Virus record (IMG/VR): IMGVR_UViG_3300035180_001680
Length of the DNA: 64,000 nucleotides
Strand: one strand, 5' to 3'
Origin: a virus
Lineage: Duplodnaviria > Caudoviricetes
This document shows positions 14,868-64,000 of the stretch, piece by piece; the stretch's first letter is position 1, and every line of letters begins with the position of its first letter. The notes beneath the pieces were generated by a model. That model was not told where the DNA came from, searched no databases, and saw only the letters and a program-made list of their open reading frames with translations. The position numbers and the translations under genes are program-made.

Positions 14868-14886
14868 GTAAAATCATGTAGATAAT

Positions 14887-19703: not shown

Positions 19704-19711
19704 TATAAATA
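19704..19711 (+). promoter_or_regulatory. T4-type late promoter
   Basis: TATAAATA about 30 nt before ATG 19741. Confidence 0.75.
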
Positions 19712-29856: not shown

Positions 29857-29942
29857 TTACCTTTTTATAATGTTTCACTAAACTCCCTTTATAGTGTATA
29901 AATATGGATACAGAGGGAGAGTGTGTTGTGTTGAAACAAATA

Positions 29943-31559
29943 ATGAAATACCATATTGAAACAGGGGGAACAAAAAAATTAACATCTTTGTTAGAAAATA
30001 GACCATTGATACGACAAAGAATTTTAAGTGAAACTTCCTTTTTACCACCAAACTCCCCTCCTGCAGCAAGATTTTTTTGTTTTATCAATAACATTTCACA
30101 ACTCCCCTCCTGTAAAATTTGTGGAAGGCCAACAAAATGGGGACGATTATTTTCCTCCGGTTTTAACACTTACTGTAGCGTTTCTTGTAAAAACAAAGAC
30201 CCCATCCAACAACAGTTGTGTAAAGATGGGGTGATAGCCACATTCGGAGTATCAAATATTAGTAAGGTTCCTTCTATAATTCAAAAGAAACGAGACAATT
30301 CAGTGTTACTCTATGGAGTGTCCAACCCAAACCAATTAGACAGCATAAAGTCTAAAGCGATAAACACAAACTTGCAAAGATATGGTGTTATTCATCCCAT
30401 GTTATTACCAAAGTTTCAACAAAAAGTAAGAAGAACAAACGTTGAACGGTATGGGGTGGATTATATACAACAGGAAGAAAATTTCAAACAAAAAACAAAA
30501 GCGACAAATTTACAAAAATTTTCTCGGGAACATCCTACACAAACACATATTACAGAAGACGCACTAAACAAATTAAATGATCCAGAATGGTTATTTCACC
30601 AACACGTTGAACTTAAACAACCTTTAACACAAATCGCGGAAAGGGTTGGAGTTAATGATACCACAGTGGGGAGATATTTAACAAAATTTGGAATAGAAAC
30701 GAAACACTTTCGTGAGTCTGTTGGACAAAACCAAATATCCCAATTTTTAATTAGTAATGGATTGAAGGTCGAGACGAATGTTAGAAATATTATTGCTCCA
30801 CTGGAATTAGACATATATTTACCCGAGTATAAAATTGCAATAGAATATTGTGGATTGTATTGGCATAGTGAGCAACTTGGAAAAAATTCAACATACCACT
30901 ATAACAAGTATAAATTGTGTTTGGATAAAAACATTCGTCTTTTTACAATATACGAGGATGAATGGTTCACAAAACAAACCACAATACAAGATATGTTGTT
31001 ACATAATCTAAATCGATCCACAAAATCGAGAGTGTTTGCAAGAAAATTATCTATTAAAATGGTTGGAGTGAACGAAAAGAAGAGGTTTTTTGAGCAATAT
31101 CATTTACAGGGGGATGGTCCTGGAAGTATAAATATTGGACTGTTTGAAGACAATTCTTTGGTCGCATGTATATCTGTGATACAAAACAAAGGTGGGGTGC
31201 TGTTGATTAATAGGTATGCAACATCGAAGATTGTTGTTGGGGGATTTTCACGGTTACTGTCTGCTCTGAAAAAACAATACGAGTGGAATGTTATTGAAAC
31301 ATTCGCTGATTTGCGGTATAGTCAAGGACAGTTATATTTGTCTGTTGGGTTTAAAAATGTGAAACAACTAAAACCAGACTATTATTATATAAAAAATAAT
31401 ATACGATATCATAAATTTAATTTTAGACGAAAATATCTGCCACTTCGGTTAGACAATTTTGATTCTTCTTTAAGTGAAAAACAGAACTGTGATGCTGATG
31501 GAATTCTTCGATTGTGGGATTGTGGAAAAATCAAATTCCAAACTTTTAAAAATTGGTAA
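29943..31559 (+). mobile_element. homing-endonuclease-like gene 2 (same family)
   Basis: CKIC...YCSVSC; TNLQRYGV repeats; ELDIYLPEYKIAIEYCGLYWHS; RLWDCG; TATAAATA at 29897. Confidence 0.75.
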
Positions 31560-31605: not shown

Positions 31606-31613
31606 TATAAATA
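31606..31613 (+). promoter_or_regulatory. T4-type late promoter
   Basis: TATAAATA before ATG 31645. Confidence 0.75.
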
Positions 31614-31644: not shown

Positions 31645-34600
31645 ATGACAGATAATTCAGATTACAAAAAACCAAGGACTAACCTTGTAGAGCTTTTACC
31701 AGACACGTTTAGAACAGACGTTAATAATTCATTTTTAGAAAATGGCCCAAATCGTTATTTAACGAAGTCCGAGTTAACACCTACGTTTGGAACTATTGGA
31801 AAAAAATCAACACGTTATAGTAAAAGCACAAGAATACCTGAACCATCTGTTCAACGTCAGGCCTACCAACTTCAACCACTTTTAAACTCAACGATCGCAA
31901 CTGTTAATTATCTATCTTCTTATGCTGACATTTTAACAAAAGCTTCTGATTTGGGAGTTGATCCAGAACGTTTACCGTTGTGGGGGAACACAACACAGTT
32001 TAATTTTGCACCACCTGTTGATTTTGATAAACTTGTTAATTGGGGAAAATATTATTGGTATGATCCTGCCGGTTCAGCACCTCAATATATAACAATAAAA
32101 AACACTTGCGCGAGTGCTGTGGCTCGGGTTAATGTTTTAACATCGAGTATAGCAAGCTATATTGCTGGAGGACCGGCACCAGGAGTATCTCAATCAGAAT
32201 TTGACACCACTGTTGCTCAAATGCAATCCGAACTCTCACGGCTTCAAATTATTAGAGATTGCGCTTGTTATAATGGAAGGGTTGGTTGGGATATGACACA
32301 GTGGGATGACAATTCTCTCAATTGGTGGCACATAAATGAATTTACTGCAGAACCACCTACTGGTCCTATAAATACAGCACCATCATCTCCTCCACTATAT
32401 TCATTGTGGTTTGATACTGATGCCAAGCAATTTAAACGATGGATGGGAAGTAGTTGGGTTAGTTATGATAATATATCTGAACTTACTGTTGGTTCTACTG
32501 TTTATACTTTTAACCCATTTTTTTGGTATGATATTAACGACGTTGATAAAATTAACGACTCAGATCCGATTGGAACGCCACCCCGTCCAAAACTAAGAGC
32601 ATGGGATGGAGAAAAATGGGTTCTCTTTGCTCCTTCTGATTTATCTTCGGGAATTTTTCCATGGGACTCTGTTGAATCTTCTCTCTGTGTAACCCAAACA
32701 GATGATTGGTCTGCCCAAAATAAGTGGTACCACCAAGCGGATGTTCCAAATATTTCATTGGCAATTAGAGCAACAATGCCAATTATTGAGTATAATCCGA
32801 ATATTGAATTAAACCAGTGGTCATATACAAAATATAAATGGTCGTACAGAGGAAGTTATCTACAAGATTGGATAAGCGTAGATAGTGAACCAACACTTTA
32901 TGAAATGGGTATAAAATTTAAAGTTTTAGGTATATCGACTTCTACAATATCAAACCCTGGAACAATTACTGTTGATGGTGATCATAGAAGTATGCTTCAA
33001 CCTGGGAACAAAATCCACGTCAATGAAGTACCTTCCTCTGTATTCACATTAACGATATATCAAGCAGATACGACTCACGGTCCAGGTAGTGATGGTTATG
33101 ATCCTGAAACAAACACTACTAAATTTTTAGTAGTAGAAGATACAGCACAAGTCATATTGGGATTAACAACTGATACAACAGTCGATTTTGTTCTTACCAC
33201 AACGAGTCTTGGTGACACTTGGGTAAGTTTCTTCTCACAATGGGCTTTAACAGAAACACCAACTCCGGTTCCTGTGAATCTTCAAACCCGTCCAACAGTA
33301 ATTCCTCAATTGTCATTTGGACCTTTACCTACTGCTGGATATAACACTTTTGTACTCCCTGATCTTTTCTTGGTTGGTAGAGATACTATTCGTGTTTATG
33401 TTGACGGAAAACGTCAATACGGAACGTATATTGAAGGATGGAGTACAAACATCCCCGGGGAGTACATTTCTGGGAACTTTACTGGGGCCAACGATCCATC
33501 GTATTCCAATATTGCTGAAACGGCAGTCGTTTCGTCTACTGGACATTCATATCCTGGAACACACGGGAATACAATTCAGTTCTTTGATCCTGTTTCTCAA
33601 TTTTCAAATGTATCGATAGAAACAATTCCAGCGGCACTGAGCGATCAATATCTATCTGAGATAGAAGTAAGAACTTCTACAGATGCAAATTTTTATACAA
33701 CAAACTTTAGTTCAATTTTTACAACTCTAATTAAATATCGTCTTGTTGAACAAATCAAAACCGAACAAACACAATATCCATTATTTGATATTTTTAATGT
33801 TGATGGAACAACAACCTATACAGCCAACAATATCTTTGGGTTTCAGGAAGGATCAACATATTCTGTGGATCCTAGAGTTGGTCGAAGAATTGCGGTCACC
33901 AATAATGGAAAAGAATTTGGTTTTGAACAACAATTACTTAATACTGACACAGGTGCAATAACTTGTTATAAAGATTCTTGGGCTATTGAAACTTCAAACC
34001 CCGCTGGGCTTCAAAGTATTTGGAGACGTGGAATTCCTGAATCAGATTCTCAATATGTTCCAAAACAAAGAAATGAGTATCAATTAGCTTATGGAGATTC
34101 ATATGTTGATTCTAATGGAGTAAAACGGATTGCTGGAATTGATACACCTTTGGGTCCAACAGATTGGGAAATTCCAAGTCAGATGATGTTTAACATTCAT
34201 CATGAAAACCGAAAGGTTGTGTTATTTTCAGAGATATATACTCACTTTACGTCTATTATTAATGCTCAAACCCCTCCTGTTGAGTTTAGTTCTGCAACTT
34301 CTGATTTTTATAGATTGTTAAATATACCAAACTTTGGTGTTGGTGGGACTATAAAAGAATTTAATGATAGTTATGACACATTCTTATCTGCAATGTTTCA
34401 AACGTCAACGAATCCAAGAGCTATTATTGATTTTGCTCGTTCTCGATATGATTACAATCTAACACTTCTACAAGAATACTTTTTACAGAATGCCATTTTG
34501 TTACTTACAAATATGAGCGATCCTTTCTATCAGGATATTAATAAAGCTATTTCTGATTACGTTATAACATTGTTTGAACAGAATGAATTCCTCGATAATT

Positions 34601-37600
34601 CATTTGGTGATTCAACTACACACAACACGTTAACAGGACTTGGTATTAAAAATTGGATAACAACTCTTCCATATTTAAAACTATCACGTCCAGTTGTTCC
34701 AGCAATATTATTTGATGTAGATTTGGGAATTAAACAGGTTCTTCATCATGATGGACATATTTCCAATATCTCTGTTCCGTCGTCAACATCAAAATCGATT
34801 TATACGAAACTGTTACAGTCAACAAACGGAGTTCAAGGTCCAATAACAACGCGCCCTGTTTGGCCGACGGTACAAAAAGGACAATATTGGATGGACACGG
34901 GTGGGGTGTTGTACAGATTTAATGTTATTAGTACATCTGGTGGAGCACCTTCGATTTTTAATCCAGTAGGAACATATTGGTTAGATGGAACAAGTGGACT
35001 TTTATATGTTAGAACGAACTCAGTACCACTTGGCTGGGAGATCGTTAAAGACAAAAATGGCCATATAACTCCAGGATATATTGAACCAGCTTGGAAACCA
35101 ATTGTATTGGAAGAAATTATAGCGAATGTGATTTATCAAGCTGAACTTAAATTATATGAAGCTGTTCCAGATTTTGATTCCACAGTGTTTGATTTTTCAA
35201 CACTACTATCATCAACATCTGAACAAGATGTATTCGTTACATATTTAAAAGAACAATACTTTGATTATATTCAACAGACTAACAGTAATCCATCTGTTAA
35301 CAATTTTGATATAAGCAATCCGTTTACATGGAACTATAACTCTATTTCTCCGAGTTATATTCCAGCTGTTAAAGTCGGTTCACCAACTATATGGGATGCG
35401 AGCTACCAAGGAATATATGAGAAAAACTTTGGAACGCAGTATCCACATCTTTTGCCTTGGAAATTACAAGGATATTATAACAAACCAACTTGGTGGGATA
35501 GTCAATACAAAGACACCTCTGGTCTCCGCCGTTGGACGAATTCGATGTGGAATAATATTAAAAATGGAATAATTCCCGTTGGAGCTTTACTTCCGGACAA
35601 CATCACAGTTGGAACTGGGTTAGTCGAATCTCCTACACAAGCACCGGTATACAATTTTATGTGTGTTGACACATCAACCGATACATTGCTTGCTCCATAT
35701 GTTCAAGGGAATACTAACACTTTCCTTAATAGTGTTAGTATTATCAACCAATATATCCCATCATTCTCTGACCCATTCTCTTTTGGTCAACAGGGTGTTA
35801 CGGAATATACCTGGAGAAATTCTTCTTATTTCCTATATGGATTGTTACATATTGCATTTAGAATGCAACCCGTGAGATTCCTACATGATGTGTTTGGACC
35901 AACATTTATCAACGTTGCTGGATTGCAAATTGATAACAGAACTAAAAAGGTTTACTCACACAAAGACGCAATATTCCACGGAGATTTGAATTCCGCTGAT
36001 CAGAATATTGTATTAAACGGATTAAATCAGTGGTATGTAAACTTTATTAGATTCAACAATCTTGATATAAACACTTCTGATTTTAAAGAGAAATGGATTA
36101 ATTGGAATGCAAACTTAACATACCAAACTGGCTCTTTTATTAATTCCAAATCTTTGGATGTTGCTGCAGATTATTTTTCTATTATACCTCAAGATTATCA
36201 AGTTCTTATTAAGAAAACTCCTGATATGAAAAATTTCTGGGTAGATGCTTTATTAGTAACGACAGAATCTGTAGGAACGGATTGGACTTTAAATCATAAC
36301 AACAAAGTTCCAAAATACTATGGTTCAGATTGGGTGTTTAGGTTGAGTACACCATCACCAATTGGACACACGATTAATTATTATGGTATTAAGAGTTATC
36401 CGTGTTCGTTTAATACAATTAACGACGTTGGTTCCACTATTGGTGCTATTGTGCTTCCATGGGCAAACGTTGCTGGAACACCAATCCCAGGAGAAGATAT
36501 TCTTTATGTTCAAGACGATACGTTGACATGGTTTACTGGTTCACCAGTTCAGGTAACTTCGGCAGAACTTTATCCAACTCCTCTTGCACCAAACACAACA
36601 TATTACATTATAAAAGTTGCTGATAACCAATTCAAACTTGCATCTTCGTATAATAACGCTGTTAATGGAATTTCAATTGATATAACCAGTCCTGGTTCAG
36701 CGGTATACATTGAAGAGTTAGTTGGAACATTTGTTGCTTTAGACGGAACACAAACATCAAATATATGGAAACACATTGCACTCGACAAGAGAACAACGAA
36801 TACAAGTCTTGTTCCAATGTATGTTACTGGAGTCCAATCGGTTATCAATTTAATTGATGGGTATTCAAATTGGTTAATGGACCAAGGGTGGGCTTTCAAT
36901 GAACCAGAAGCAGTAGAAGTTGATATCCAAACTGGAAAAATTTTGAATTGGCAAACAGAAATTGAACGTTTAATTGGAAGAATTTATTCTGGTTTAGGTT
37001 TGGTTACTATTCAAGGCAACCCAACGTCACCAGGTAGTATTTCAGTATTAGGTAATTTGATTCAAGGGGTGGGTTACTCGTCAGGAAAATATATTAATAT
37101 TCAAACTGAAACCATTACCGGAACAGGTTCAGGGGCAACTGTTAATATTGTGGTACAAGACAATAAGGTATTTTCTGTAAATATTAACAAAATTGGAATG
37201 CAGTATAATACGGGTGATACTATCTCTGTCCTTGGAGCTAACTTTGGAGGTGGAGACGATATAATACTTACAGTACTAAACGTTTTCCCAGTGTCGCTCA
37301 ATCAACCAATTTCAGGAGAAGTCTTACATGAAGTTAATCCTTTCAGAAACAATATATGGTTTAAAACACCACGAGGAATAATATCGAATATATATTCACA
37401 ATCTTATTCAGATGTTCGTGTTGATTCCACAGTATATGATCAGTTTGGAGATACTCTTCCAAGTTCATCTGTTTTCATATTTCGAGAAGACACGAAGAGT
37501 CGTATCAGAGAATGCTTTCTTTGTGGAAGTGTGTATTCGCAGTCAGGGGCGGTAAATTCAAACCAAGATGCAGCTATTAATCCGTATACCACTCCTCATT

Positions 37601-40341
37601 TAGGTGGTGCACACTTGTTCCTGGATGGGTATGAACATGCAATTGTTTTTAATGATTATACAACCGATGGTTTCTTAATATTTGATCCATTTATCGGATT
37701 GAGTACAAGTAAATTCACTCTTGCCTTTGAAAAAGGTGCTGCTTATACGTTTAGACCAAACATAGGTGGTTATTTCTTAAATGGTGAACAAACAGTTCAA
37801 AACATTGAAAATACTGTTGACAATATGCAATTGTATTATGATACGTTTAAAGTAAATGAAACTGCTGACTTTCTTGATTACGCTCGTGCTGCTTTAGGAT
37901 ACGAATCACCAGATTACCTTGACAATATCGGTATTAATTCAAAATCTAAATTTATATTTTGGAGAGGTATGATTCACAACAAAGGATCAATTAACGCAGT
38001 TAAAGCTTTTATTAATGCAAGATTGTTTGTTGACGCAAAAATCGACGATTTTTGGGCTTACAAAGTTGGTGAGTTTGGAAATCTAACAAGAAAATATTTT
38101 AATGACATTAACATTGAACCTGAAGATATTAAGAAAAATGAATTAAGGTTAGAATTCGCTTCTTCAAATATCGATCCAACCTTCATAACGATTACACCAA
38201 CAGATGATGTTCGTTGGGAATATTTTCCTGATCAGCGTTCTACGATAAATCCAACATTAGATTTTTATTTTAGTGCTGGTGTGATTGGTGTTATTACTGG
38301 AACATGCAATGGAAGTCCTGTTGACGTAATACTACCAAACAATGATGGTTATCAAGTTGTGAAATTTGATCCAGTTACAAAAATCTCTTCTGTTTTGGTA
38401 AGTGGCGTTTCTCAACTTAACAACAACCATATTACTATTACAAGTTCTGATAACTTTAATTATTCTGTTTATGTGTTTTCTGTTTCAAAACAAAAACACA
38501 ATCCAGCAAAGTTAATAGATAAACAATCCAAGGATGTGATATCGTCTATTATGATTTGGCATCCAGCTGTTGGATTCCATTATCAAGTTCCTATAAGTTT
38601 AATCGATATACAACGTGATAATGATCCAGCAACGTATAACAATACCATTTCATCTGGATTAACAGGAACTATGTATTATCAAGAAGAATTTGTTCCAAGA
38701 ACAAATTGGAATTCACAGGAAGTTGGAAAGATTTGGTTGCGAACTAGCTCATTTGGATATACACCATACTATGATCCAATAGTTTATCCTAACGTTAGTG
38801 ATAGAATTACAAACTGGGGCAAACCTACAGATTGGAGTTCTTTTGATGTCTTACAATGGACTGAATCTCCTGTAACTCCTGAAAATTGGGACGCGTATGT
38901 AATATCACAAGCATCTAATACAGAATTAGACCAGTATTCATTACCTTCTGGAACTCCGATGAAAGTAATTTATAGACGTGTCAATATTAACACAGATTCT
39001 ACTTTACCACCAACTTATTCAGATTATCAAAGAATAGACACAAATCCAAGAATTCAGGTTTTATATGATACTATTAGTAGTGTTTCAGTATTCCCAGTTC
39101 AATTTTTAGAACAAATTGATTTAAGGTTGGATCATAACATTGATAATGGTCAAGTTGTAAACGTTTATGTTAATGGAATATTAAAAACGACCACACACAC
39201 AACTTCTATAATAAGTACGATTTTAAATGAACCACCAACGAATCCTATGGACAAAGATTCGTATAAGGTTGGAACAATTCCGACTGGAGATTGGACACCA
39301 TTCGCAATTGGTGATATCGTTCAGTGGAATGAAACAACCTCGAGTTGGGATGTGTTAACCACTGGTGCTGAGTTTGATGCTCTTTCCAGTGTGGGTGCTT
39401 ATGTTACTTTTGATCCAACAACATTAAACGTTGGTGACACGATTACATTTGAATATCCTTTATTTAATGTTGATGTTTCAACTCTTCCGAACACGATGAT
39501 TGAATATACTTTATTTACACCATACACCAGTGTTAATACAATAGACAATCAAGGAAACATAGTAGACACAAAGTATTACTTCTGGGTTATGAATAAGAAC
39601 GTTAGACCAACGGCAACCACACTTTCATTATCTGAAATTAAATCCTTGTTGAAAGTTCCGTCAGTACCATATATGTTTATGTTGGGTATTGATGGAACAC
39701 TCCAACGTTTCAATAGTGTTGTAATCAGAGGAATTTCAAGATTTATTTCACAAAACGACAGATTTAAAGTTCGTTTCCAAACAGACGCATCTCTCCGTGA
39801 TGATAGTGATATTTCTTCCAGTCTAACAAAGAAAAATGTTCATACACAATGGGAATTGTTTAGACAAGAACAGAACGTTGTAATATCCAGAACGTTGTGG
39901 AATAAATTAACAGAGTCTGTCGTAGGATATAAGTTACATGACGATAATACTCCTGTTCCATCTTTGGATAGGGTTTTATATGATCAATTAAATGGTAGTG
40001 CAACGAGAATTGGTATGGGAGAAGGTCAAAGTTTTGTAGATAAAGATTTGGCTCTAAATACAATTATTAATGAAATTGAAAATCCAAATTATGATTTATC
40101 TCCTATTGACAAATCAGCATTTCTCGATACATACAGTTTCGATACACCAGAGAATATTTTGACTGCTATGGATTACATTTATAACACTTTTGCATACTCT
40201 GATACCAATAGAATATTTTTCTCATGTCTCCACGATGCAATGTCACTAAAAAGTGAATATGGAGACATATTTAAAACTTCAGCCATTGCGTTGCATGGAA
40301 TAAAAATATTAGAAACTTCAAAAGAGGCAATGAATGGCTAA
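31645..40341 (+). CDS. very large baseplate wedge/structural protein (~2900 aa)
   Basis: Late promoter, position after gp6, FNFAPPVDFDKLVNW and WRGMIHNKGS motifs, internal fibre-like modules. Confidence 0.75.
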   Translation: MTDNSDYKKPRTNLVELLPDTFRTDVNNSFLENGPNRYLTKSELTPTFGTIGKKSTRYSKSTRIPEPSVQRQAYQLQPLLNSTIATVNYLSSYADILTKASDLGVDPERLPLWGNTTQFNFAPPVDFDKLVNWGKYYWYDPAGSAPQYITIKNTCASAVARVNVLTSSIASYIAGGPAPGVSQSEFDTTVAQMQSELSRLQIIRDCACYNGRVGWDMTQWDDNSLNWWHINEFTAEPPTGPINTAPSSPPLYSLWFDTDAKQFKRWMGSSWVSYDNISELTVGSTVYTFNPFFWYDINDVDKINDSDPIGTPPRPKLRAWDGEKWVLFAPSDLSSGIFPWDSVESSLCVTQTDDWSAQNKWYHQADVPNISLAIRATMPIIEYNPNIELNQWSYTKYKWSYRGSYLQDWISVDSEPTLYEMGIKFKVLGISTSTISNPGTITVDGDHRSMLQPGNKIHVNEVPSSVFTLTIYQADTTHGPGSDGYDPETNTTKFLVVEDTAQVILGLTTDTTVDFVLTTTSLGDTWVSFFSQWALTETPTPVPVNLQTRPTVIPQLSFGPLPTAGYNTFVLPDLFLVGRDTIRVYVDGKRQYGTYIEGWSTNIPGEYISGNFTGANDPSYSNIAETAVVSSTGHSYPGTHGNTIQFFDPVSQFSNVSIETIPAALSDQYLSEIEVRTSTDANFYTTNFSSIFTTLIKYRLVEQIKTEQTQYPLFDIFNVDGTTTYTANNIFGFQEGSTYSVDPRVGRRIAVTNNGKEFGFEQQLLNTDTGAITCYKDSWAIETSNPAGLQSIWRRGIPESDSQYVPKQRNEYQLAYGDSYVDSNGVKRIAGIDTPLGPTDWEIPSQMMFNIHHENRKVVLFSEIYTHFTSIINAQTPPVEFSSATSDFYRLLNIPNFGVGGTIKEFNDSYDTFLSAMFQTSTNPRAIIDFARSRYDYNLTLLQEYFLQNAILLLTNMSDPFYQDINKAISDYVITLFEQNEFLDNSFGDSTTHNTLTGLGIKNWITTLPYLKLSRPVVPAILFDVDLGIKQVLHHDGHISNISVPSSTSKSIYTKLLQSTNGVQGPITTRPVWPTVQKGQYWMDTGGVLYRFNVISTSGGAPSIFNPVGTYWLDGTSGLLYVRTNSVPLGWEIVKDKNGHITPGYIEPAWKPIVLEEIIANVIYQAELKLYEAVPDFDSTVFDFSTLLSSTSEQDVFVTYLKEQYFDYIQQTNSNPSVNNFDISNPFTWNYNSISPSYIPAVKVGSPTIWDASYQGIYEKNFGTQYPHLLPWKLQGYYNKPTWWDSQYKDTSGLRRWTNSMWNNIKNGIIPVGALLPDNITVGTGLVESPTQAPVYNFMCVDTSTDTLLAPYVQGNTNTFLNSVSIINQYIPSFSDPFSFGQQGVTEYTWRNSSYFLYGLLHIAFRMQPVRFLHDVFGPTFINVAGLQIDNRTKKVYSHKDAIFHGDLNSADQNIVLNGLNQWYVNFIRFNNLDINTSDFKEKWINWNANLTYQTGSFINSKSLDVAADYFSIIPQDYQVLIKKTPDMKNFWVDALLVTTESVGTDWTLNHNNKVPKYYGSDWVFRLSTPSPIGHTINYYGIKSYPCSFNTINDVGSTIGAIVLPWANVAGTPIPGEDILYVQDDTLTWFTGSPVQVTSAELYPTPLAPNTTYYIIKVADNQFKLASSYNNAVNGISIDITSPGSAVYIEELVGTFVALDGTQTSNIWKHIALDKRTTNTSLVPMYVTGVQSVINLIDGYSNWLMDQGWAFNEPEAVEVDIQTGKILNWQTEIERLIGRIYSGLGLVTIQGNPTSPGSISVLGNLIQGVGYSSGKYINIQTETITGTGSGATVNIVVQDNKVFSVNINKIGMQYNTGDTISVLGANFGGGDDIILTVLNVFPVSLNQPISGEVLHEVNPFRNNIWFKTPRGIISNIYSQSYSDVRVDSTVYDQFGDTLPSSSVFIFREDTKSRIRECFLCGSVYSQSGAVNSNQDAAINPYTTPHLGGAHLFLDGYEHAIVFNDYTTDGFLIFDPFIGLSTSKFTLAFEKGAAYTFRPNIGGYFLNGEQTVQNIENTVDNMQLYYDTFKVNETADFLDYARAALGYESPDYLDNIGINSKSKFIFWRGMIHNKGSINAVKAFINARLFVDAKIDDFWAYKVGEFGNLTRKYFNDINIEPEDIKKNELRLEFASSNIDPTFITITPTDDVRWEYFPDQRSTINPTLDFYFSAGVIGVITGTCNGSPVDVILPNNDGYQVVKFDPVTKISSVLVSGVSQLNNNHITITSSDNFNYSVYVFSVSKQKHNPAKLIDKQSKDVISSIMIWHPAVGFHYQVPISLIDIQRDNDPATYNNTISSGLTGTMYYQEEFVPRTNWNSQEVGKIWLRTSSFGYTPYYDPIVYPNVSDRITNWGKPTDWSSFDVLQWTESPVTPENWDAYVISQASNTELDQYSLPSGTPMKVIYRRVNINTDSTLPPTYSDYQRIDTNPRIQVLYDTISSVSVFPVQFLEQIDLRLDHNIDNGQVVNVYVNGILKTTTHTTSIISTILNEPPTNPMDKDSYKVGTIPTGDWTPFAIGDIVQWNETTSSWDVLTTGAEFDALSSVGAYVTFDPTTLNVGDTITFEYPLFNVDVSTLPNTMIEYTLFTPYTSVNTIDNQGNIVDTKYYFWVMNKNVRPTATTLSLSEIKSLLKVPSVPYMFMLGIDGTLQRFNSVVIRGISRFISQNDRFKVRFQTDASLRDDSDISSSLTKKNVHTQWELFRQEQNVVISRTLWNKLTESVVGYKLHDDNTPVPSLDRVLYDQLNGSATRIGMGEGQSFVDKDLALNTIINEIENPNYDLSPIDKSAFLDTYSFDTPENILTAMDYIYNTFAYSDTNRIFFSCLHDAMSLKSEYGDIFKTSAIALHGIKILETSKEAMNG

Positions 40342-50457: not shown

Positions 50458-50491
50458 AGTATAAATAGATAAAATTAATTGGAGAAAACAA

Positions 50492-51094
50492 ATGAAATTA
50501 CGTGGAACACTTGAAAATAAAAAATATAGTACCTTAACAGAATGGGAAGACGATGAAGATGATTTGTCCCCATCCGAAAAAGCACTGGTTGCAAAGGCAG
50601 ATAAAGATTTATCTAAACGTGGTGTTAAGGTTAAAGATTTTGACCCTGATAAAGTTGTTGGGAATAAAAGTTCAAAAGACGAAGACGATGATGAGGCACC
50701 AAGTGGTAAATCAACACCAAAGCCCGCAAATAAAACAGCCAAATCAACAGAACATAACGGTGGTGAAGCTTCTACAAAGTCACGCGGAGAAAAGGTTGCA
50801 CAAGCTCGTAAATTTCTACAAGACCATCCAAATGCAACCAGAAAAGAGTTTACCGTGTTCGTTGCAAATCATGGAGTTTCTCCTGCCTACGCAAATACGA
50901 TGTTCTACTTGATGAAAAACAAACTTCGAGAAGTGTTTTATATTATGAATGATAACGGAGAAGTTTTAGCAGAAGGTGATGAATGGACCGTATTTGAAGA
51001 TTATGGAAAACGTTTGCAGATGTTTAAGAGTGAATGGACTGCGAAAAGCAAAACTCTTAAAAAGGGTGGAAAAGTTAAACAGTTTAAACTTTAA
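50492..51094 (+). CDS. putative internal head protein with basic/acidic N-region and HTH-like core
   Basis: TATAAATA at 50460; leader ending ...STLTE; HPNATRKEF...GVSPAYANTMFY. Confidence 0.55.
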   Translation: MKLRGTLENKKYSTLTEWEDDEDDLSPSEKALVAKADKDLSKRGVKVKDFDPDKVVGNKSSKDEDDDEAPSGKSTPKPANKTAKSTEHNGGEASTKSRGEKVAQARKFLQDHPNATRKEFTVFVANHGVSPAYANTMFYLMKNKLREVFYIMNDNGEVLAEGDEWTVFEDYGKRLQMFKSEWTAKSKTLKKGGKVKQFKL

Positions 51095-51200: not shown

Positions 51201-52721
51201 ATGTTAAAAAGTATTTTAAAACAAAATGGTATTCTAACTGAAAAAGGAATTTCTAATAATTATAAAAGAATATTAGTTAAACATCCTTCGATTGAACAAC
51301 AAATAATTGATTTTACTAAATTTCTTGATATAGAAGATTATTTACCTTCTATGAAAGAACGGTTATTGTGTATTTTCAAAGACATAACTTCGGTTCCTAG
51401 ATGTCCACAATGTGGGAAGATTTCATCATTTGTTCAATCTTCGTATAGAACTTTTTGTTCCTCAATATGTGCTCAATCCAATATTCAAACAAGAAATAAA
51501 CACAAACAAACTATGTTAAAAACATATGGTGTGGAATATGGGGGACAAACAGATGAACAAAAACAAAAAAGAAAAAATACTTGTTTGTTTCGTTACGGAG
51601 TTGATCATCATTGGAAAAATTCATCCATTCAACAAAAACGCATCAATACATTTGCTTCAAATTATGGAGTAATAAACCCTCAACAACAATACTTTAGTGA
51701 TGAAACTTTGTCGTTGTTAAATGATATAAATTGGTTGACGCATGAACACCATGTTTTACAAAAATCGTGTGCAGAAATATCCAACAATCTACAAGTAAAT
51801 CCTACCACAGTTTCGAATTACTTACACAAGTACAATATTCCTATTAAACATTTTAATACATCACTTGCTCAACGAGAAATTGGTTCATTTCTTCAAAATT
51901 TCACCTCCGTGGAACTCAACAATAGAACAATCTTAACTTCTGGTAAAGAAATTGATGTTTTTTTACCAGATTATAATATTGCTATAGAATATTGTGGATT
52001 GTATTGGCATAGTGATTATTTTGAACGTAACACCAAAAATTCACATTTAAATAAATTAAACGAATTGTTACTTAAAGACATTAGATTAATAACAATTTTT
52101 GAAGATGAGTGGACACTAAAACAGGATATAGTAAAATTGAAATTGCTTGCGATATTAGGAAAAGACCCTCGTAAACGGGTATTTGCTAGACAAACATATA
52201 TATCTAATGTTTCAACACAAGAAAAACAAATATTTTTTGAAAATACTCATATTCAAGGTAATGGTCCAAGTTCTATTAATATTGGTTTGTATGATACACA
52301 CGAACTAGTTGCTTGTATGGGATTAATCAAACAAAAAAATAATAGATATATAATTAATAGATATTCTACTTCTGCACAAGTTGTGGGAGGTTTTAGTAAA
52401 CTACTAACATATTTTATTAAAAACTATAATCCCACGCAACTTGTATCTTTTGCTGACAGAAGATGGGGAGAAGGGAATTTGTATCACAAAACTGGTTTTA
52501 GTTTGGAGTATATCATTACTCCTGATTATCATTATGTTGTTAATCACAAACGAATACACAAATTTAATTTTAGACACAACAATCTTAAAAAAATTCTTAC
52601 TAAGTATGATGAACACTCGAGTGAAGTTGTTAACTGTAAAAATAATGGAATTTTTAGAATATGGGATTGTGGGTTAATAAAGTTCACCATAAATACAGCA
52701 CAACGTGGAGAAACACAATGA
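51201..52721 (+). mobile_element. homing-endonuclease-like gene 3 (same family)
   Basis: CPQC...FCSSIC; KQTMLKTYGV; EIDVFLPDYNIAIEYCGLYWHS; RIWDCG; CATAAATA at 51170. Confidence 0.75.
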
Positions 52722-54395: not shown

Positions 54396-55883
54396 TTATG
54401 GTTTCCAAGTCCACACATCATTGCCACAATCCCATATACGATCATAACCACTATTGATCATATTATTCCATTCAGTTTTAAGTGGATCGAATAAATCCAA
54501 TTTTTCACTCAATTTGTGTTTCTGAAATACGTTCCTTGAGTATAGTTGATATGGATTGTTTCTGTGAAAATACCAATAATTGGGTGAACTTGTGTGGGAT
54601 AATGTAAACCCCAAATTTAAATATACTCCTCCTGTGTTATATCGTTTATCGCTATAGGATATTACAGACGTGGGAGATTTTTCTAAAATGAAGTGTTTAA
54701 ATAATTTAGATGCACCCCCCACAACAGTGGTGTTAAGTTTTGAAGCAAATCGGATTAATTCGTACTCTTCTTTTCCATATCGCGGTTTTCCAAAAGTCAT
54801 AACACTTACTAATTTATTTTCAAACGTAAGACCTATGTTATAAGAACTACCAACATCACCTTGAATATGATACGCATTCATAAAATTTCTTCTTTCTGAA
54901 AAATTAACATTTACGATATTACATTTTCGGGCGTATATTTTTTCAGTATTTTTATTTAATAATGATAAAATTCTCGATTTTACAATATCTTTTTTATTAA
55001 TCCACTCAACGTCTATAATGTGAATTAATCTAATACCATGTAAATTTAACATATTTGTTTTGGATATATGATATGTTCTGTTTTTTCCATTCAATTCACT
55101 ATGCCAGTATACTCCATCAATTTCTATAGCAATTGAGTATTCTGGAAGATAAACATCTACTTCTGGTCCAAACTTTTTTACTCTCGTTTGTACTTCGATT
55201 CCAAGTGAAGCAATAAAATCGCAAACTTCACGTTCTGGTTGAGATTGGAAATGTTGTTGAACGGCGATATCAAACAAATTGAATCGTTTTTGGATTAATG
55301 ACGGACTTACGTTAAGTTCTGTTGCAATCTGAATTAAGGATTTATTTTTATTCTCTTCAGTTAACCAACCTGGGTCATCAATTTTGTGTAAAATGTCTTT
55401 AATTTTAAATGTGTTTGGATAAAGACCATCTCGTAATAAATTATTTTTTTCTATTTGATCATTCTTGTGTTTATCTGATCCCAAGTAGCTTGATGTTCCG
55501 TATCTTTCAACCATTGTAGATTGAATCTGGTGCTGAATAGATGGAACTTTTGCTGGGATTTTTTCCCCATATTTATCTTCCATTTTTTGGTAATATTTTT
55601 CTCTTATTTCAGGAACTTTTTGAACACACGAGCGACAATATGTTGCATAGTGTTTTTTGCCTTGACTAAATTGAATTAAGTTAGAACAATACCCACACGT
55701 TGGAGATTCACTTATATTATGTAATATGCAATAAAGTCGTTCATATGTTGAAACGTGTTCAGGTAAAAATTTTGTTAATTCTCTGATTCGGTTAAATAAA
55801 AATTCATGTTTGTTTATAATTTTATTATACGACGGAGATATAGTTAATTTACCATTCCGTTGTATAAAAAGGTTATATTCCAT
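54396..55883 (-). mobile_element. homing-endonuclease-like gene 4 (same family)
   Basis: CGYC...YCRSC; TMVERYGT; EVDVYLPEYSIAIEIDGVYWHS; RIWDCG. Confidence 0.75.
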
Positions 55884-60085: not shown

Positions 60086-60225
60086 AGTGCGTCCTTTGTT
60101 ATAATTATTATTGTTTATTATTCTAATAATTATACACCGAGAAGATAAAGAAAAACAACATTTTAATGTTCAATTGACTACTTTCTTATTGTTGCTACAC
60201 CAGAAACATTTTCCAGTGTGCAGTT

Positions 60226-60768
60226 TCATTTCGAAAGTCCTTTAATAAATTCGTTGTATGGTTTAGCCCGTTCTGTATCTTTTGCAATAGCAGGTTCTGC
60301 TTCAGGCCATCTTCCCTTGATGATATAACGAGCATACCAATAAGCCCACCGTGGATCTTTTGTAATAACATGTTCTGCTTTAGGAAATCTTCCTTTGATG
60401 ACATCACGAGCATACCAATAAGCCCAACGTGGATCTTTTGCAATAGCAGGTTCTCCTTCAGGCCATCTTCCTTCAATGACATCACGAGCATACAAAAAAG
60501 CCCATTCTGGATCTTTTGCAATAGCAGGTTCTCCTTCAGGCCACTTTCCCTTGATGACATCACGATCATAACTATAAGCCCACTGTGGATCTGTTGCAAC
60601 AACAGATTCTGCTTCTTTTTTCTGTTGTGCGTTTAATTTTCCACTTTTTAGTGCCTCATATGCCATCTGTGGAGTAGCCATGTGCTTTTTATCAAACCCA
60701 TGCAATTTTTCTGGGTTTGAATGATATTTGTATAAATCCATTGCTTCAAACAAGTCGCGTAATTTCAT
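60226..60768 (-). CDS. 26-aa repeat protein, copy A (4 repeats)
   Basis: 62-aa N-module + 4x26 + 14-aa cap = 180 aa. Confidence 0.9.
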   Translation of the reverse strand: MKLRDLFEAMDLYKYHSNPEKLHGFDKKHMATPQMAYEALKSGKLNAQQKKEAESVVATDPQWAYSYDRDVIKGKWPEGEPAIAKDPEWAFLYARDVIEGRWPEGEPAIAKDPRWAYWYARDVIKGRFPKAEHVITKDPRWAYWYARYIIKGRWPEAEPAIAKDTERAKPYNEFIKGLSK

Positions 60769-61385
60769 TTCGAAAGTCCTTTGATGAATTCGTTGTAATT
60801 TTTAGCCCACTTTGGATCTTTTGCAATAGCAGGTTCTCCTTCAGGCCATCTTTCTTTGATGACATCACGAGCATACCCATAAGCCCACTTTGGATCTTTT
60901 GCAATGACAGATTCTGCTTCAGGCCATCTTCCTTTGATGACATCACGAGCATACCCATAAGCCAACTCTGGATCTTTTGCAATAGCAGGTTCTCCTTTAG
61001 GAAACCTTCCTTTGATGACCTCACGAGCATACCAATAAGCCAAACGTGGATCTTTTGCAACAGTAGGTTCTGCTTCAGGAAATCTTTCCTTGATGACATC
61101 ACGAGCATAAATATAAGCCAAACGTGGATCTTTTGCAATGACAGATTCTCCTTTAGGCCATCTTCCCTTGATGACATCATGAGCATACTCATAAGCCCAC
61201 TTTGTGTCTGTTGCAACAACAGATTCTGCTTCTTTCTTTTGTTGTGCATTCAGTTTTCCACTCTCCAGTGCCTCATATGCCATCTCAGGCGTAGCCATGT
61301 GCTTTTTATCAAACCCATGCAATTTTTCTGGGTTTGAATGATATTTGTATAAATCCATTGCTTCGAGTAAGTCACGTAGTTTCAT
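60765..61385 (-). CDS. 26-aa repeat protein, copy B (5 repeats)
   Basis: 62 + 5x26 + 14 = 206 aa; ATGA overlap. Confidence 0.9.
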   Translation of the reverse strand: MKLRDLLEAMDLYKYHSNPEKLHGFDKKHMATPEMAYEALESGKLNAQQKKEAESVVATDTKWAYEYAHDVIKGRWPKGESVIAKDPRLAYIYARDVIKERFPEAEPTVAKDPRLAYWYAREVIKGRFPKGEPAIAKDPELAYGYARDVIKGRWPEAESVIAKDPKWAYGYARDVIKERWPEGEPAIAKDPKWAKNYNEFIKGLSK

Positions 61386-62080
61386 TTCGAAAGTCCTTTG
61401 ATGTCTTGTTTATACCGTTTAGCATATGTTGGATCTTTTGCAATAGCAGGTTCTTATTCAGGCCATCTTCCTTTGATGACAGAACGAGCATAATTATAAG
61501 TCCAACGTGGGTCTTTTGCAATAGCAGGTTCTGCTTCAGGCCATCTTCCTTTGACGGCATCACGAGCATACAAAAAAGCCCATTCTGGATCTTTTGCAAT
61601 AGCAGGTTCTCCTTTAGGAAATCTTTCTTTGATAACATTACTAGCATACCAATAAGCCCACCGTGGATCTTTTGCAATAGCAGGTTCTCCTTCAAACCAT
61701 CTTCCTTTGATGACATCACGAGCATACAAAAAAGCCCATTCTGGGTCTTTTGCAATAGCAGGTTCTGCTTCAGACCATCTTCCTTTGATGACATCACGAG
61801 CATACAAAAAAGCCCATTCTGGGTCTTTTGCAATAGCAGGTTCTGCTTCAGACCATCTTCCTTTGATGACATTACGAGCATAACTATAAGCCCACTGTGG
61901 ATCTGTTGCAACAACAGACTCTGCTTCTTTTTTCTGTTGTGTGTTTAATTTTCCACCTTTTAATGCAAAAAAAGCCATCTCAGGAGTAGCCATGTGTTTT
62001 TTATCAAACCCATGCAATTTTTCTGGATTCGAGTGATATTTGTATAAATCCATTGCTTCAAACAAGTCGCGTAATTTCAT
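61382..62080 (-). pseudogene. 26-aa repeat protein, copy C (6 repeats) with in-frame TAA
   Basis: TAA at 61454-61456 replaces the G/A codon of WPE(G/A)EP. The frame continues 23 codons to KGLSK-TGA, which overlaps the ATG of copy B. Confidence 0.85.
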
Positions 62081-62775
62081 TTCGAAAGTCCTTTGATGTC
62101 TTGTTTATACCGTTTAGCATATGTCGGATCTTTTGCAATAACAGGTTCTGCTTCAGGAAATCTTCCTTTGATGACATTACGAGCATAATACGAAGCCCAC
62201 TGTGGATCTTTTGCAATAACAGATTCTGCTTCAGGAAATCTTCCTTTGATGACATTACGAGCATACCAATAAGCATACTGTGGATCTTTTGCAATAGCAG
62301 GTTCTCCTTCAGGCCATCTTCCTTTGATGGCACCACGAGCATACTCATAAGCCCATTCTGGATGTTTTGCAATAGCAGGTTCTCCTTCAGGCCATCTTCC
62401 TTTAATGACATCATGAGTATACCAATAAGCATACTCTGGATGTTTTGCAATAGCAGGTTCTCCTTCAGGCCATCTTCCTTTAGTGACATCATGAGTATAC
62501 CAATAAGCATACTTTGGATCTTTTGCAATAGCAGGTTCTCCTTCAGGCCATCTTCCTTTGATGGCATCACGAGCGTACTCATAAGCCCACCGTGGATCTG
62601 TTGCAACAACAGACTCTGCTTCTTTTTTCTGTTGTGCGTTTAATTTTCCACCTTTTAATGATTCAAAAGCCATCTCAGGCGTAGCCATGTGCTTTTTATC
62701 ATATCCATGCAATTTCTCTGGATTTGAGTGGTATTTGTATAAGTCCATTGCTTCGAATAAGTCACGTAATTTCAT
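62077..62775 (-). CDS. 26-aa repeat protein, copy D (6 repeats)
   Basis: 62 + 6x26 + 14 = 232 aa. Confidence 0.9.
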   Translation of the reverse strand: MKLRDLFEAMDLYKYHSNPEKLHGYDKKHMATPEMAFESLKGGKLNAQQKKEAESVVATDPRWAYEYARDAIKGRWPEGEPAIAKDPKYAYWYTHDVTKGRWPEGEPAIAKHPEYAYWYTHDVIKGRWPEGEPAIAKHPEWAYEYARGAIKGRWPEGEPAIAKDPQYAYWYARNVIKGRFPEAESVIAKDPQWASYYARNVIKGRFPEAEPVIAKDPTYAKRYKQDIKGLSK

Positions 62776-63314
62776 TTTGAAAGTCCTTTAATAAATTCGT
62801 TGTATGGTTTAGCCCACTCTGGATGTTTTGCAATAACAGGTTCTGCTTCAGGAAATCTTTCTTTGATGACATCACGAGCATACCCATAAGCCCACTCTGG
62901 ATCTTTTGCAATAACAGATTCTGCTTCAGGAAATCTTCCTTTGATGACATTACGAGCATACTCATAAGCCCAATCTGCTTTTTTTGCAATAGCAGGTTCT
63001 CCTTCAGGCCATCTTCCTTTGATGACATAACGAGCATACAAACAAGCCCAACGTGTATCTTTTGCAATGACAGATTCTCCTTTAGGAAATCTTTCTTTGA
63101 TGACATTACGAGCATACAAACAAGCCCATCTTGGATCTGTTGCAACAACAGACTCTGCTTCTTTTTTCTGTTGTGCGTTTAATTTTTCACCTTTTAATGC
63201 TTCAAAAGCCATCTCAGGCGTAGCCATGTGCTTTTTATCATATCCATGTAACTTCTCTGGATTTGAATGATATTTATATAAATCCATTGCTTCGAACAGA
63301 TCACGTAATTTCAT
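62772..63314 (-). CDS. 26-aa repeat protein, copy E (4 repeats)
   Basis: 180 aa, same architecture. Confidence 0.9.
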   Translation of the reverse strand: MKLRDLFEAMDLYKYHSNPEKLHGYDKKHMATPEMAFEALKGEKLNAQQKKEAESVVATDPRWACLYARNVIKERFPKGESVIAKDTRWACLYARYVIKGRWPEGEPAIAKKADWAYEYARNVIKGRFPEAESVIAKDPEWAYGYARDVIKERFPEAEPVIAKHPEWAKPYNEFIKGLSK

Positions 63315-63931
63315 TTCGAAAGTCCTTTAACAAATTCTTTGTATTTTTTAGCCCATTCTGGATCTTTTGCAATAACAGGTTCTGCTTCAGGAAATCTTCT
63401 TTTAATGACATCACGAGCATACCCATAAGCCCACTGTGGATCTTTTGCAATAGCAGGTTCTCCTTTAGGAAATCTTCTTTCGATGACTTGTTGAGCATAC
63501 ACATAAGCCCAATCTGCTTTTTTTGCAATAGCAGGTTCTCCTTTAGGAAATCTTTCCTTGATGACATTACGAGCATACAAACAAGCCCACTTTGGATCTT
63601 TTGCAATAGCAGGTTCTCCTTCAGGCCATCTTCCTTTAGTGACATCATGAGTATACCAATAAGCATACTCTGGATCTTTTGCAATAGCAGGTTCTGCTTC
63701 AGGAAATCTTCCTTTGATGATATCATCAGCATAATTATAAGCCCAACGTGGATCTTTTGCAATAACAGACTCTGCTTCTTTTTTCTGTTGTGCGTTTAAT
63801 TTTCCACTCTTTAGTGCTTCAAAAGCCATCTCAGGAGTAGCCATGTGTTTTTTATCATATCCATGTAACTTCTCTGGATTTGAGTGGTATTTGTATAAAT
63901 CCATTGCTTCGAATAAGTCACGTAATTTCAT
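63311..63931 (-). CDS. 26-aa repeat protein, copy F (5 repeats)
   Basis: 206 aa, same architecture. Confidence 0.9.
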   Translation of the reverse strand: MKLRDLFEAMDLYKYHSNPEKLHGYDKKHMATPEMAFEALKSGKLNAQQKKEAESVIAKDPRWAYNYADDIIKGRFPEAEPAIAKDPEYAYWYTHDVTKGRWPEGEPAIAKDPKWACLYARNVIKERFPKGEPAIAKKADWAYVYAQQVIERRFPKGEPAIAKDPQWAYGYARDVIKRRFPEAEPVIAKDPEWAKKYKEFVKGLSK

Positions 63932-64000
63932 TTTGAAAGTCCTTTGATGAATTCGTTGTATGGCTTAGCCCATTCTGGAACTTTTGCAATAACAGGTTCT
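63928..64000 (-). CDS. 26-aa repeat protein, copy G (3' end only)
   Basis: EPVIAKVPEWAKPYNEFIKGLSK-TGA overlapping the ATG of copy F; truncated by the window edge. Confidence 0.85.
   Translation of the reverse strand, partial: EPVIAKVPEWAKPYNEFIKGLSK

Follow-up and report, generated by a model that had tools for sequence, protein, structure and literature searches.

Metagenomes from sediment and mats yielded an uncultured T4-like giant phage in which we identified a head-to-tail array of 27 paralogous genes that together hold 156 units of 26 amino acids, with 4 to 11 units per gene. The reading that best explains the whole, which we hold tentatively and at somewhat less than an even chance, is that the array constitutes a recombining repertoire of binders, probably packaged into the head via a capsid-targeting-like L-x-E leader. 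The array lies on the minus strand and spans 18,296 bp (contig positions 359 to 18654), equal to 21.6% of an 84,887-bp record that is approximately 25% complete. The window, i.e., the 64,000-nt stretch of DNA originally analyzed, covers only the distal end, with the final six and a quarter genes. The original prediction had described at least seven coupled paralogues leaving the right edge of the window, and the rest of the array was indeed recovered in the full record. T4-like genes in the record encode topoisomerase II subunits, RNase H, a gp41-like helicase, a clamp, a baseplate wedge, and a Gp23-family protein, the gene for the last being the sole head-module gene present. The array is co-oriented with the clamp and RNase H genes, which in T4 are early/middle genes, a point against a packaged repertoire. 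TATAAATA, a T4-type late-promoter motif, precedes structural genes of this phage; the record ends 358 nt upstream of the array, and the array's own promoter lies off the record. Within the array, neither sigma-70-like promoters nor terminators were in excess over shuffled expectation.

All genes follow a common plan: a 9-amino-acid leader (MKLRDLFEA), a conserved N-module, 4 to 11 helix-turn-helix units bearing the motif R-W/F-P-E-x-E-P, and a cap. Protein length equals the 62-amino-acid N-module (leader included) plus n × 26 amino acids plus a 14-amino-acid cap ending in KGLSK or KGISK. This architecture had been proposed from the window, where all its parts are present in genes of 4, 5, or 6 units and where Tandem Repeats Finder detected the 78-bp period. 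On the minus strand of the window, the cap-encoding 3′ end of gene 21 occupies the last 73 nt (63928 to 64000; full gene at contig positions 14332 to 14952, 206 amino acids). Gene 22 (63311 to 63931; 206 amino acids, 5 units) comprises leader codons at 63905 to 63931, the N-module at 63746 to 63931, five 78-bp units at 63356 to 63745, and the cap with the stop codon at 63311 to 63355. It is followed by gene 23 (62772 to 63314; 180 amino acids, 4 units), gene 24 (62077 to 62775; 232 amino acids, 6 units), gene 25 (61382 to 62080; 6 units), gene 26 (60765 to 61385; 206 amino acids, 5 units), which has the leader variant MKLRDLLEA, and the last gene, gene 27 (60226 to 60768; 180 amino acids, 4 units). 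A vestigial 28th start (60170 to 60229), with an ATGA overlap and the residues MKLH, continues into unrelated sequence, stops after 19 codons, and marks the array boundary.

The pattern AAAGGA-N8-ATGA recurs at 26/26 junctions over the whole array, in agreement with the Shine-Dalgarno sequence and ATGA overlaps noted earlier in the window, and the genes are translationally coupled in an operon-like manner. Twenty-five of the 27 reading frames are intact; one carries a 2-bp frameshift and another, gene 25, an in-frame TAA at 61454 to 61456 that had been overlooked, removes the final 23 codons, and breaks coupling to the next gene. Since position 61456 is C in contigs of two other samples (runs X2 and X3), giving GAA on the coding strand, the gene 25 stop is strain specific. 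Gene 23 contains TATAAATA at 63271 to 63278 on the minus strand, a candidate only, which arises from a synonymous TAC-to-TAT change in the D-L-Y-K-Y codons and is the sole instance among the 27 copies; the motif was created in the same fashion once in a related array, L011. Logan contigs from four DNA runs fragment to 70- to 135-nt pieces within the array, and the sequencing runs listed as containing the sequence included none of RNA.

We modeled the gene 22 protein with AF2, and the alpha-solenoid that had been proposed was returned with a mean pLDDT of 92.2 and a pTM of 0.82, each unit consisting of two helices, of 12 and then 7 residues, joined by a turn. Short helix-turn-helix units stacked as a solenoid are also characteristic of LRV- or HEAT-like alpha-alpha solenoids, alphaRep, DARPin, and designed helical repeats, and these classes gave the best, though weak, fold matches of the model. 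Designed repeat binders likewise combine a constant framework with variable positions on one helix face. Unlike LRV/HEAT repeats, the unit found here forms a family of its own; neither LRV (PF01816) nor HEAT was detected by profile search at E values up to 1, and the structural likeness to them is weak. Pfam, PHROGs, and NCBIfam contained no genuine family for the array proteins, a sequence-profile search of the PDB gave no match, Foldseek against the PDB gave only E values above 0.1, and the best Z score of a wide VIA-align search of the PDB (6.5) does not stand out from helical-repeat noise. The earlier statement that no described system matches these genes therefore stands with respect to these databases. 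Searches of GenBank phage records, by tblastn with two family members (50,697 records) and by megablast with the region, gave no match, and exact look-ups found none of the array proteins on record. The unnamed family is widespread, with >800 metagenomic relatives.

We then compared diversity in the constant and repeated parts. The N-module has a piS of 0.395 and a piN of 0.050 (piN/piS, 0.13), whereas the repeats have a piS of 0.127 and a piN of 0.190 (piN/piS, 1.49), a ratio that would be inflated if their low synonymous diversity reflects concerted evolution. In the leader, residues 1 to 6 and 8 to 10 have a piN of 0, with synonymous variation in six of these codons. Purifying selection, strict in the leader, keeps both of these parts constant. 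Hypervariability is confined to unit positions 26, 1, 3, 4, 7, and 8, an identical set in this array, L011, L021, and L017/L018, and in the model these six positions are predicted to sit on the outer face of each unit's long helix. The recurrence of the same six positions in four arrays, together with the contrast in piN/piS, gives the signs expected of the amplified family under diversifying selection that had been postulated. All units analyzed (143/143) are unique at the DNA level; units only 1 to 3 nt apart occur in nonadjacent genes, the mean unit distance is the same within genes as between genes, and almost every combination of the N-module dimorphic sites, whose synonymous dimorphisms are saturated, is present. 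These patterns show reshuffling of units and N-module segments among genes by homologous recombination. A diversity-generating retroelement was rejected as a source of the variation, as consensus A positions were the least variable (0.054, versus 0.225 for G), and no reverse transcriptase was found among the ORFs scanned.

Because no gene pair exceeds 89% nucleotide identity and N-module piS is 0.40, the copies are old rather than fresh duplicates. Related contigs show that strains differ both in how many genes they carry and in how many units a gene holds. L012 shares a 98.9%-identical flank, yet it carries a 12-gene array whose genes are only 77 to 94.5% identical to any gene of the 27-gene array, and P0001 corresponds to gene 13 less exactly one unit. 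Copy-number variation in relatives, which the original prediction had proposed to look for, was thus found, whereas the identical content across isolates that would have spoken against that prediction was not. Its term "accordion" holds for the differences in gene and unit number but not for near-identical recent copies, which are absent.

The leader can be compared with the capsid-targeting sequence (CTS) of T4, MKTYQEFIAE (10.1101/2021.01.19.427310). In T4, gp21 cleaves after L/I-X-E, and diverse internal proteins have nothing but the CTS conserved in common (PMC9026906, PMC3012670). These internal proteins are packaged and injected and form a diverse set of anti-restriction factors that is host specific (PMC3012670, PMC9026906). 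L-x-E stands at residues 6 to 8 in 27/27 array copies (L-F-E in 23, L-L-E in 4), compared with a background of 6/75 other ORFs with L/I-x-E in the first 12 residues. A late protein of the array-bearing phage begins MKHIRKLLKE|TAAAG, which resembles the putative gp23 cleavage junction in relatives. Leaders of a similar kind also occur on unrelated PcfJ-like proteins of relatives (MKLHE, MKLSLLFES, or MKLFEVF). On the other hand, the leaders differ, MKLRDLFEA having only 4/10 residues in common with the T4 sequence (M1, K2, F7, and A9), and a leader is lacking in 21/32 family members that bear the N-module and in the late array of L021. Similar starts are found on Acb1 homologues as well (MKLSEL or MRLINLFER), which are not known to be packaged; N-termini of this type may be generic. 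The case for a capsid-targeting-like role of the leader and for head packaging of the array proteins is accordingly circumstantial. Like the internal proteins IPI, IPII, and IPIII of T4 and the T-even internal-protein loci, the array provides several diverse proteins with one short leader ending in L/I-x-E in a T4-type phage. It differs in that the protein bodies are homologous modular repeats instead of unrelated folds, and in that 27 genes are coupled in a single array, whereas the T4 genes are few and scattered.

The family genes of T4-like relatives, usually no more than approximately 8 in number, follow late promoters and neighbor head genes. In L017, the order is portal, S77 protease, gp22, gp23, endonuclease, family gene, TATAAATA, PcfJ-like gene, and two family genes, such that Peptidase_S77, gp22, and gp23 adjoin family genes; in L021, gp22, gp23, and TATAAATA are followed by 4 + 3 family genes. 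A PcfJ-like protein is encoded next to the family in relatives, or the two are fused, and in the array-bearing phage the first array gene begins 9 nt downstream of such a gene ("GTKWCT"). The PcfJ-like domain is fused to array-type 26-amino-acid repeats in AFDB A0A5C7J2L6, L016, and phrog_28193 and, among Atlas structure neighbors, to Ank, LRR, LRV, DUF4116, or WG repeats. Compared with such fusions of large phages, the upstream gene belongs to the same family, with N-termini of the MKLFE/MKLSLLFES type, but the repeat part has been split off and multiplied 27-fold. In phage PA5oct, a homologue of the partner (EST35_0205) carries the annotation "structural protein, ESI-MS/MS" (PMC7318152); no resemblance to the repeat family was found for PA5oct gp205.

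The name PcfJ-like is a lead only. It derives from an Atlas feature score of 0.90 to clusters with PcfJ in 17 to 33% of members and from Foldseek E values of 0.02 to 0.09 to PcfJ-like entries; the PF14284 profile did not match 8 members of the partner family at E values up to 1. Against PDB folds, the partner gave no Z score above 5.8, with unconvincing GNAT-like rows, and matches to designed-PPR sequences were rejected as summed low-complexity matches. No entry of the viral and metagenome collections matched an exact 30-mer from the upstream gene. One may speculate on Cys-His-Asp catalysis from C166 and D214, both invariant, and a mostly conserved His. Complex prediction for the L017 PcfJ-like/family pair gave a weak score of 0.32, versus 0.01 for the best control, with runs sharing at least 55% of contacts and a partner pLDDT of at least 85. 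The mark used for this score was reached by 58/80 solved complexes and 2/110 mismatched pairs, and with scores of 0.60 or less it was reached by just 7 of those 80 solved complexes and by both passing mismatches.

Under the packaged-repertoire model, the array proteins would be made late, as in relatives, and MKLRDLFE|A would act like the T4 capsid-targeting sequence, loading them into the prohead, where a gp21-type protease would cut the leader after Glu8. The proteins would then enter the next host along with the DNA. The constant N-module would dock onto a common partner, for which the best candidate is the PcfJ-like protein, covalently fused to such repeats in other phages and known in PA5oct as a virion component. 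The variable face, differing in specificity from one protein to the next, would engage polymorphic host targets, e.g., defense proteins; an anti-defense role is pure inference. In a more specific version, which we regard as unlikely, one PcfJ-like effector and 27 interchangeable adaptors would be loaded jointly into the head via a common leader and injected along with the DNA, the matching adaptor recruiting the effector, and recombination of 78-bp units would continually make new specificities. The host target in this version would be the host's variant of a defense (or other) protein.

The most serious rival, which we nonetheless consider somewhat unlikely, keeps the adaptors but not the packaging: the 27 solenoids would be interchangeable specificity subunits of the upstream PcfJ-like protein acting in the cytoplasm of the infected cell, a split form of the PcfJ-like/repeat fusions, with a leader that would serve simply as a conserved initial helix or in translation initiation. 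The fusions and gene adjacency, the weak complex score set against its control, the absence of the leader from most family members, and the leader-like N-termini of Acb1 homologues all agree with it. It accounts less well for the late promoters and head-module position in L017 and L021, for the virion location of the PA5oct homologue, and for a leader without nonsynonymous variation at residues 1 to 6 and 8 to 10 whose L-x-E is kept in all 27 copies. Those same late promoters and the proximity to gp22/gp23 could instead indicate head assembly or internal structural proteins (e.g., core, DNA-condensing, or decoration), with multiplicity serving dosage and variation arising from relaxed constraint plus concerted evolution; the low synonymous diversity of the units fits such homogenization. 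Dosage, however, favors identical copies, whereas no pair here exceeds 89% identity and every unit analyzed differs. Variation is moreover limited to the same six helix positions across four arrays, and array content differs behind near-identical flanks. We give a structural role only a small chance.

Selfish or neutral tandem amplification without present function is very improbable. Unequal crossing-over readily expands tandem repeats, and 2 of the 27 genes are broken, but the stop in one of these is strain specific, and the remaining 25 frames are intact across 18 kb. Further against it are an N-module piN/piS of 0.13 with saturated synonymous dimorphisms, retention of the Shine-Dalgarno sequence and ATGA at every junction, and the hundreds of metagenomic relatives. 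The lowest probability of all falls to helix-turn-helix DNA-binding regulators, as which some relatives are automatically annotated: PF13693 (HTH_35) reaches a summed 26.8 bits in one paralogue and is tagged in precomputed annotations of some homologues. No single stretch passes the gathering score alone, matches span only 17 to 29 of 75 profile positions (33 to 49 or 21 to 49) and recur once per unit, and AF2 predicts a solenoid rather than a winged helix.

Multigene families and accordions are familiar from large viruses, including the poxvirus ankyrin families, the MGF of ASFV, and the K3L accordions of poxviruses. Phage examples are the amplification of the T4 tifA region (10.1101/2022.04.14.488369) and, in Bacillus phage G, the growth of a zinc-ribbon family to approximately 35 copies (PMC7824862). 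These expansions resemble the array in lineage-specific tandem growth, in copy number that varies between strains, and in a presumed service in host-virus conflict. Unlike them, the array consists of old copies that are all different, exchanges 78-bp units between genes, and forms one translationally coupled operon. No phage array of solenoid binders was described in the literature we searched, and even on a minimal reading the present array is among the largest tandem paralogue arrays found for a phage. If the packaged-repertoire model is correct, about a fifth of the recovered record would be a recombining library of small binders on one scaffold, a new phage answer to host diversity in which breadth comes from a multigene repertoire rather than from one evolving gene or a retroelement. 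The effector-adaptor version, if true, would amount, on the viral side, to modular recognition of the VLR or TALE kind. Designed repeat binders have in this scaffold a natural analogue, which could be of practical interest given its 26-amino-acid unit, its six variable positions, and its confidently predicted fold. The packaged repertoire would also provide a function for the unnamed family, with its hundreds of members in metagenomes, and for the PcfJ-like virion proteins of jumbo phages.

The window is the reverse of positions 14880 to 78879 of G000, an 84,887-bp IMG/VR-type virus record with an estimated completeness of 25%, and the array lies on the minus strand. In the window, ORF listing gave six complete genes plus a seventh that is cut by the edge, and Tandem Repeats Finder gave a 78-bp period. 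When the whole record was searched with one paralogue, the array extended 14.5 kb further than the window, and parsing of the record placed 27 genes at contig positions 359 to 18654 (18,296 bp). Recovery of the rest of the array thus bore out, and enlarged, the original prediction of at least seven coupled paralogues. Gene length follows 62 + 26n + 14 residues, where n is 4 to 11 and the units total 156. Of the 27 genes, 25 are intact, including one that lacks a single codon in frame. A 2-bp frameshift affects one gene beyond the window, and in the window gene at 61382-62080 a TAA interrupts the frame at 61454-61456; since contigs of two other samples have GAA at this codon, the stop is a strain-specific lesion. 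All 26 junctions consist of AAAGGA, 8 nt, and ATGA, and a vestigial ATGA-MKLH start is left beyond the last gene. The upstream edge of the record is 358 nt from the array, and no room for a promoter is left between gene 1 and the gene that precedes it. At the other end, a weak AT-rich hairpin, a T-run, and TATAAT at 60086-60170 (minus strand), between the array and the next gene, suggest that the downstream MazG-like, clamp, and RNase H genes constitute a transcription unit of their own.

By its sequence, the record is a T4-like myovirus. It has a GC content of ~36% and encodes topoisomerase II large and medium subunits, RNase H, a gp41-like helicase, a clamp, ribonucleotide reductase, baseplate wedge and gp5-like proteins, a Gp23-family protein, and Acb1; the sequence occurs in runs of sediment and microbial-mat metagenomes. 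Structural genes are preceded by TATAAATA motifs 25 to 40 nt upstream. This motif also precedes a single 2,898-aa late ORF at 31645-40341 (plus strand; motif at 31606), between baseplate wedge and fibre-like genes, and two orphan late genes on the plus strand. One of these, at 50492-51094 (motif at 50460-50467), encodes 200 aa with no Pfam or PHROGs family; an acidic, Lys-rich stretch comes after its MKLRGTLEN start. The other, at 19741-20706 (motif at 19704-19711), encodes 321 aa with an acidic middle; MKHIRKLLKE is followed by TAAAGATTAGGIAG, like a gp23/gp24-type propeptide junction, and its ETASAGASSAGGIAS motif recurs in the PA5oct structural protein EST35_0203. Its product is a candidate processed head-internal protein. 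Four homing-endonuclease-like paralogues (phrog_3339/phrog_559) of ~500 aa each, at 25128-26702 (minus), 29904-31559 (plus), 51201-52721 (plus), and 54396-55883 (minus), are interspersed with structural and replication genes; in the related locus L017, a fifth relative follows gp23.

Two JGI contigs, L011 and L012, share their exact first base with the record, and their upstream gene is 98.9% identical to that of the record. Behind it lie 12 array genes, compared with 27 in the record, of other lengths (180, 154, 232, 206, and so on), whose best matches in the record (77 to 94.5% identity) are no better than those between paralogues (84 to 89%). The context downstream of this array also differs. 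Moreover, P0001, a protein of a very near genome, is gene 13 minus exactly one unit, in register. A different array behind a nearly identical gene, together with this one-unit loss, indicates an old family in which gene and unit number are still changing. The predicted "accordion" therefore stands as to variation between strains but not as a fresh expansion. The shared start base of the record and the independent L012 falls inside the PcfJ-like gene (contig position 1, 14.9 kb past window position 64000); thus, the sequence upstream is probably repeated or polymorphic in the genome, breaking assemblies.

Across 27 copies, the N-module had a piS of 0.395 and a piN of 0.050 (piN/piS, 0.13), versus 0.127 and 0.190 for 143 unit copies, whose ratio of 1.49 is suggestive of positive selection rather than proof, because concerted evolution may lower synonymous diversity. 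The amplified, diversifying family originally proposed agrees with these values. Leader residues 1 to 6 and 8 to 10 are invariant, with synonymous variation in six of those codons. Synonymous sites of the N-module carry two states at intermediate frequency, combined in almost every possible way, which points to old alleles shuffled through short-tract recombination. All 143 units are distinct at the DNA level; pairs 1 to 3 nt apart sit in distant genes (e.g., gene 1 unit 3 and gene 6 unit 7), and mean unit distance is the same within and between genes (13.3 and 13.8 of 78 nt). Mutagenesis by a DGR was rejected, since consensus adenines are the least variable bases. Unit entropy is highest at positions 4, 26, 8, 7, 1, and 3, whose spacing corresponds to a single face of the long helix; positions 2, 5, 6, 9, 10, 13, 18, and 21 to 23 are near-fixed. 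The same variable positions recur in three other arrays (L011, L021, and L017/L018), with piN/piS pooled over the six positions of 1.53, 1.25, 0.76, and 2.29 in the four arrays.

AlphaFold2, given an alignment of paralogues and outside homologues, modelled the array protein with a mean pLDDT of 92.2 and a pTM of 0.82; the first six residues fell below a pLDDT of 50. In each predicted unit, a 4-residue turn connects a 12-residue helix to a 7-residue helix, so the alpha-solenoid reading holds at the level of structure prediction. Foldseek against PDB gave only E > 0.1, VIA-align over 48,161 chains gave Z ≤ 6.5 (to HEAT, PPR, Pumilio, Sel1, and designed repeats), and sequence search of PDB gave no match. 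HTH_35 was rejected, its score being a sum of per-unit fragments that each cover 17 to 29 of 75 profile positions.

A word-seeded HMMER search found 835 relatives at E ≤ 0.001, nearly all unnamed metagenomic proteins; the Atlas clusters are Uroviricota. Tandem copies are fewer elsewhere: two to three in L013 and L014, five in L018, three in L017, and seven in L021. In L017, portal, a small acidic protein, a Peptidase_S77 prohead protease, gp22, gp23, and a homing endonuclease are followed on the same strand by one family gene, then TATAAATA, the gene of a 252-aa protein, and a further pair of family genes. The T4-type portal gene of L017 (1-2505) contains an intein (weak Intein_splicing match inside Portal_T4). 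In L021, gp22 and gp23 precede a gene in the opposite orientation, TATAAATA, and four family genes; GATAAATA, a coiled-coil protein, and the other three family genes come next, with three small genes between them and gp13. Family or partner genes of L014, L016, and L019 are preceded by CATAAATA or GATAAATA. These neighbours and motifs indicate that, in these relatives, this is a late, head-region family.

The 252-aa protein of L017 is homologous to the truncated gene directly upstream of the array, which encodes the PcfJ-like partner. Its conserved "GTKWCT" domain is fused to 26-aa array repeats in L016, and phrog_28193 matches domain and repeats alike. The AlphaFold cluster A0A5C7J2L6 matches the partner model over residues 9 to 276 (E, 5.8e-11) and the array model over residues 328 to 533 (E, 7.5e-10; TM, 0.75; 34% identity). 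Among Atlas structure neighbours, the domain is joined to Ank, LRR, LRV, DUF4116, or WG repeats, and in L019 a partner gene is ATGA-coupled to a gene for an N-module-motif protein. Together, these comparisons link the domain to the repeats. Atlas feature neighbours are clusters partly tagged PcfJ, but the PF14284 profile did not match the domain. In L019, a 360-kb phage contig (positions 10729-13263 and 18487-19155), a stretch without genes that translates like a tRNA array comes after the PcfJ-like gene, with release-factor-like genes (PCRF, RF-1) in the vicinity. Complex prediction for the L017 pair scored 0.32 (best control, 0.01), with contact agreement of at least 55% and partner pLDDT of at least 85. 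Of 80 solved complexes, 58 attain this score, as do 2 of 110 mismatches, and scores of 0.60 or under include only 7 of the 80 and both passing mismatches; the model thus weakly supports a complex.

The T4 capsid-targeting sequence (CTS) is MKTYQEFIAE (10.1101/2021.01.19.427310); it is the sole conserved part of otherwise diverse injected anti-restriction proteins, and gp21 cleaves after L/I-X-E (PMC9026906, PMC3012670). All 27 array copies have L-F-E or L-L-E at leader residues 6 to 8, followed by Ala. The extension is missing in most family members and begins exactly at their start: among 32 stored proteins with the N-module motif, 21 start directly at M-x-(N/D)-L-Y-x-x-H, 4 have a 5-residue MKL(H/S/F)E extension, and 3 have the 9-residue leader. 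Partner proteins of relatives begin MKLHE, MKLSLLFES, or MKLFEVF, and the MKHIRKLLKE/TAAAG start of the 19741-20706 protein is similar both to the putative gp23 cleavage junction in L017 and L021 and to a PA5oct virion protein. These features favour a CTS-like role, against which stand the occurrence of L/I-x-E near the N-terminus in 8% of other ORFs, a late array in L021 without the leader, and Acb1 homologues that begin MKLSEL or MRLINLFER. The record's Acb1 homologue (anti-CBASS; PF23474; E, 8.7e-35) lies outside the window at contig 82813-83334, minus strand (L023:4014-4535); its Pfam match, from residue 15 on, is preceded by 14 aa that begin MRLINLFER and resemble the array leader. The PspYZU05 and PX29 homologues have the N-termini MKLSEL and MMLSFSEFTE.

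The only cultured partner relatives found are in PA5oct-type Pseudomonas jumbo phages. EST35_0205 of PA5oct, which begins MKLFEVF, is annotated "structural protein, ESI-MS/MS"; the PA5oct study linked 93 products to the virion by this method (PMC7318152). In agreement with the original prediction, the literature searched described no system of this kind, and the array proteins matched no family in Pfam, PHROGs, or NCBIfam. Among published concepts, T-even internal-protein loci and the multigene repeat families found in large viruses come closest. The leader, the late head-region neighbours in relatives, and the virion homologue of the partner make it plausible that the array proteins are packaged in the phage head.
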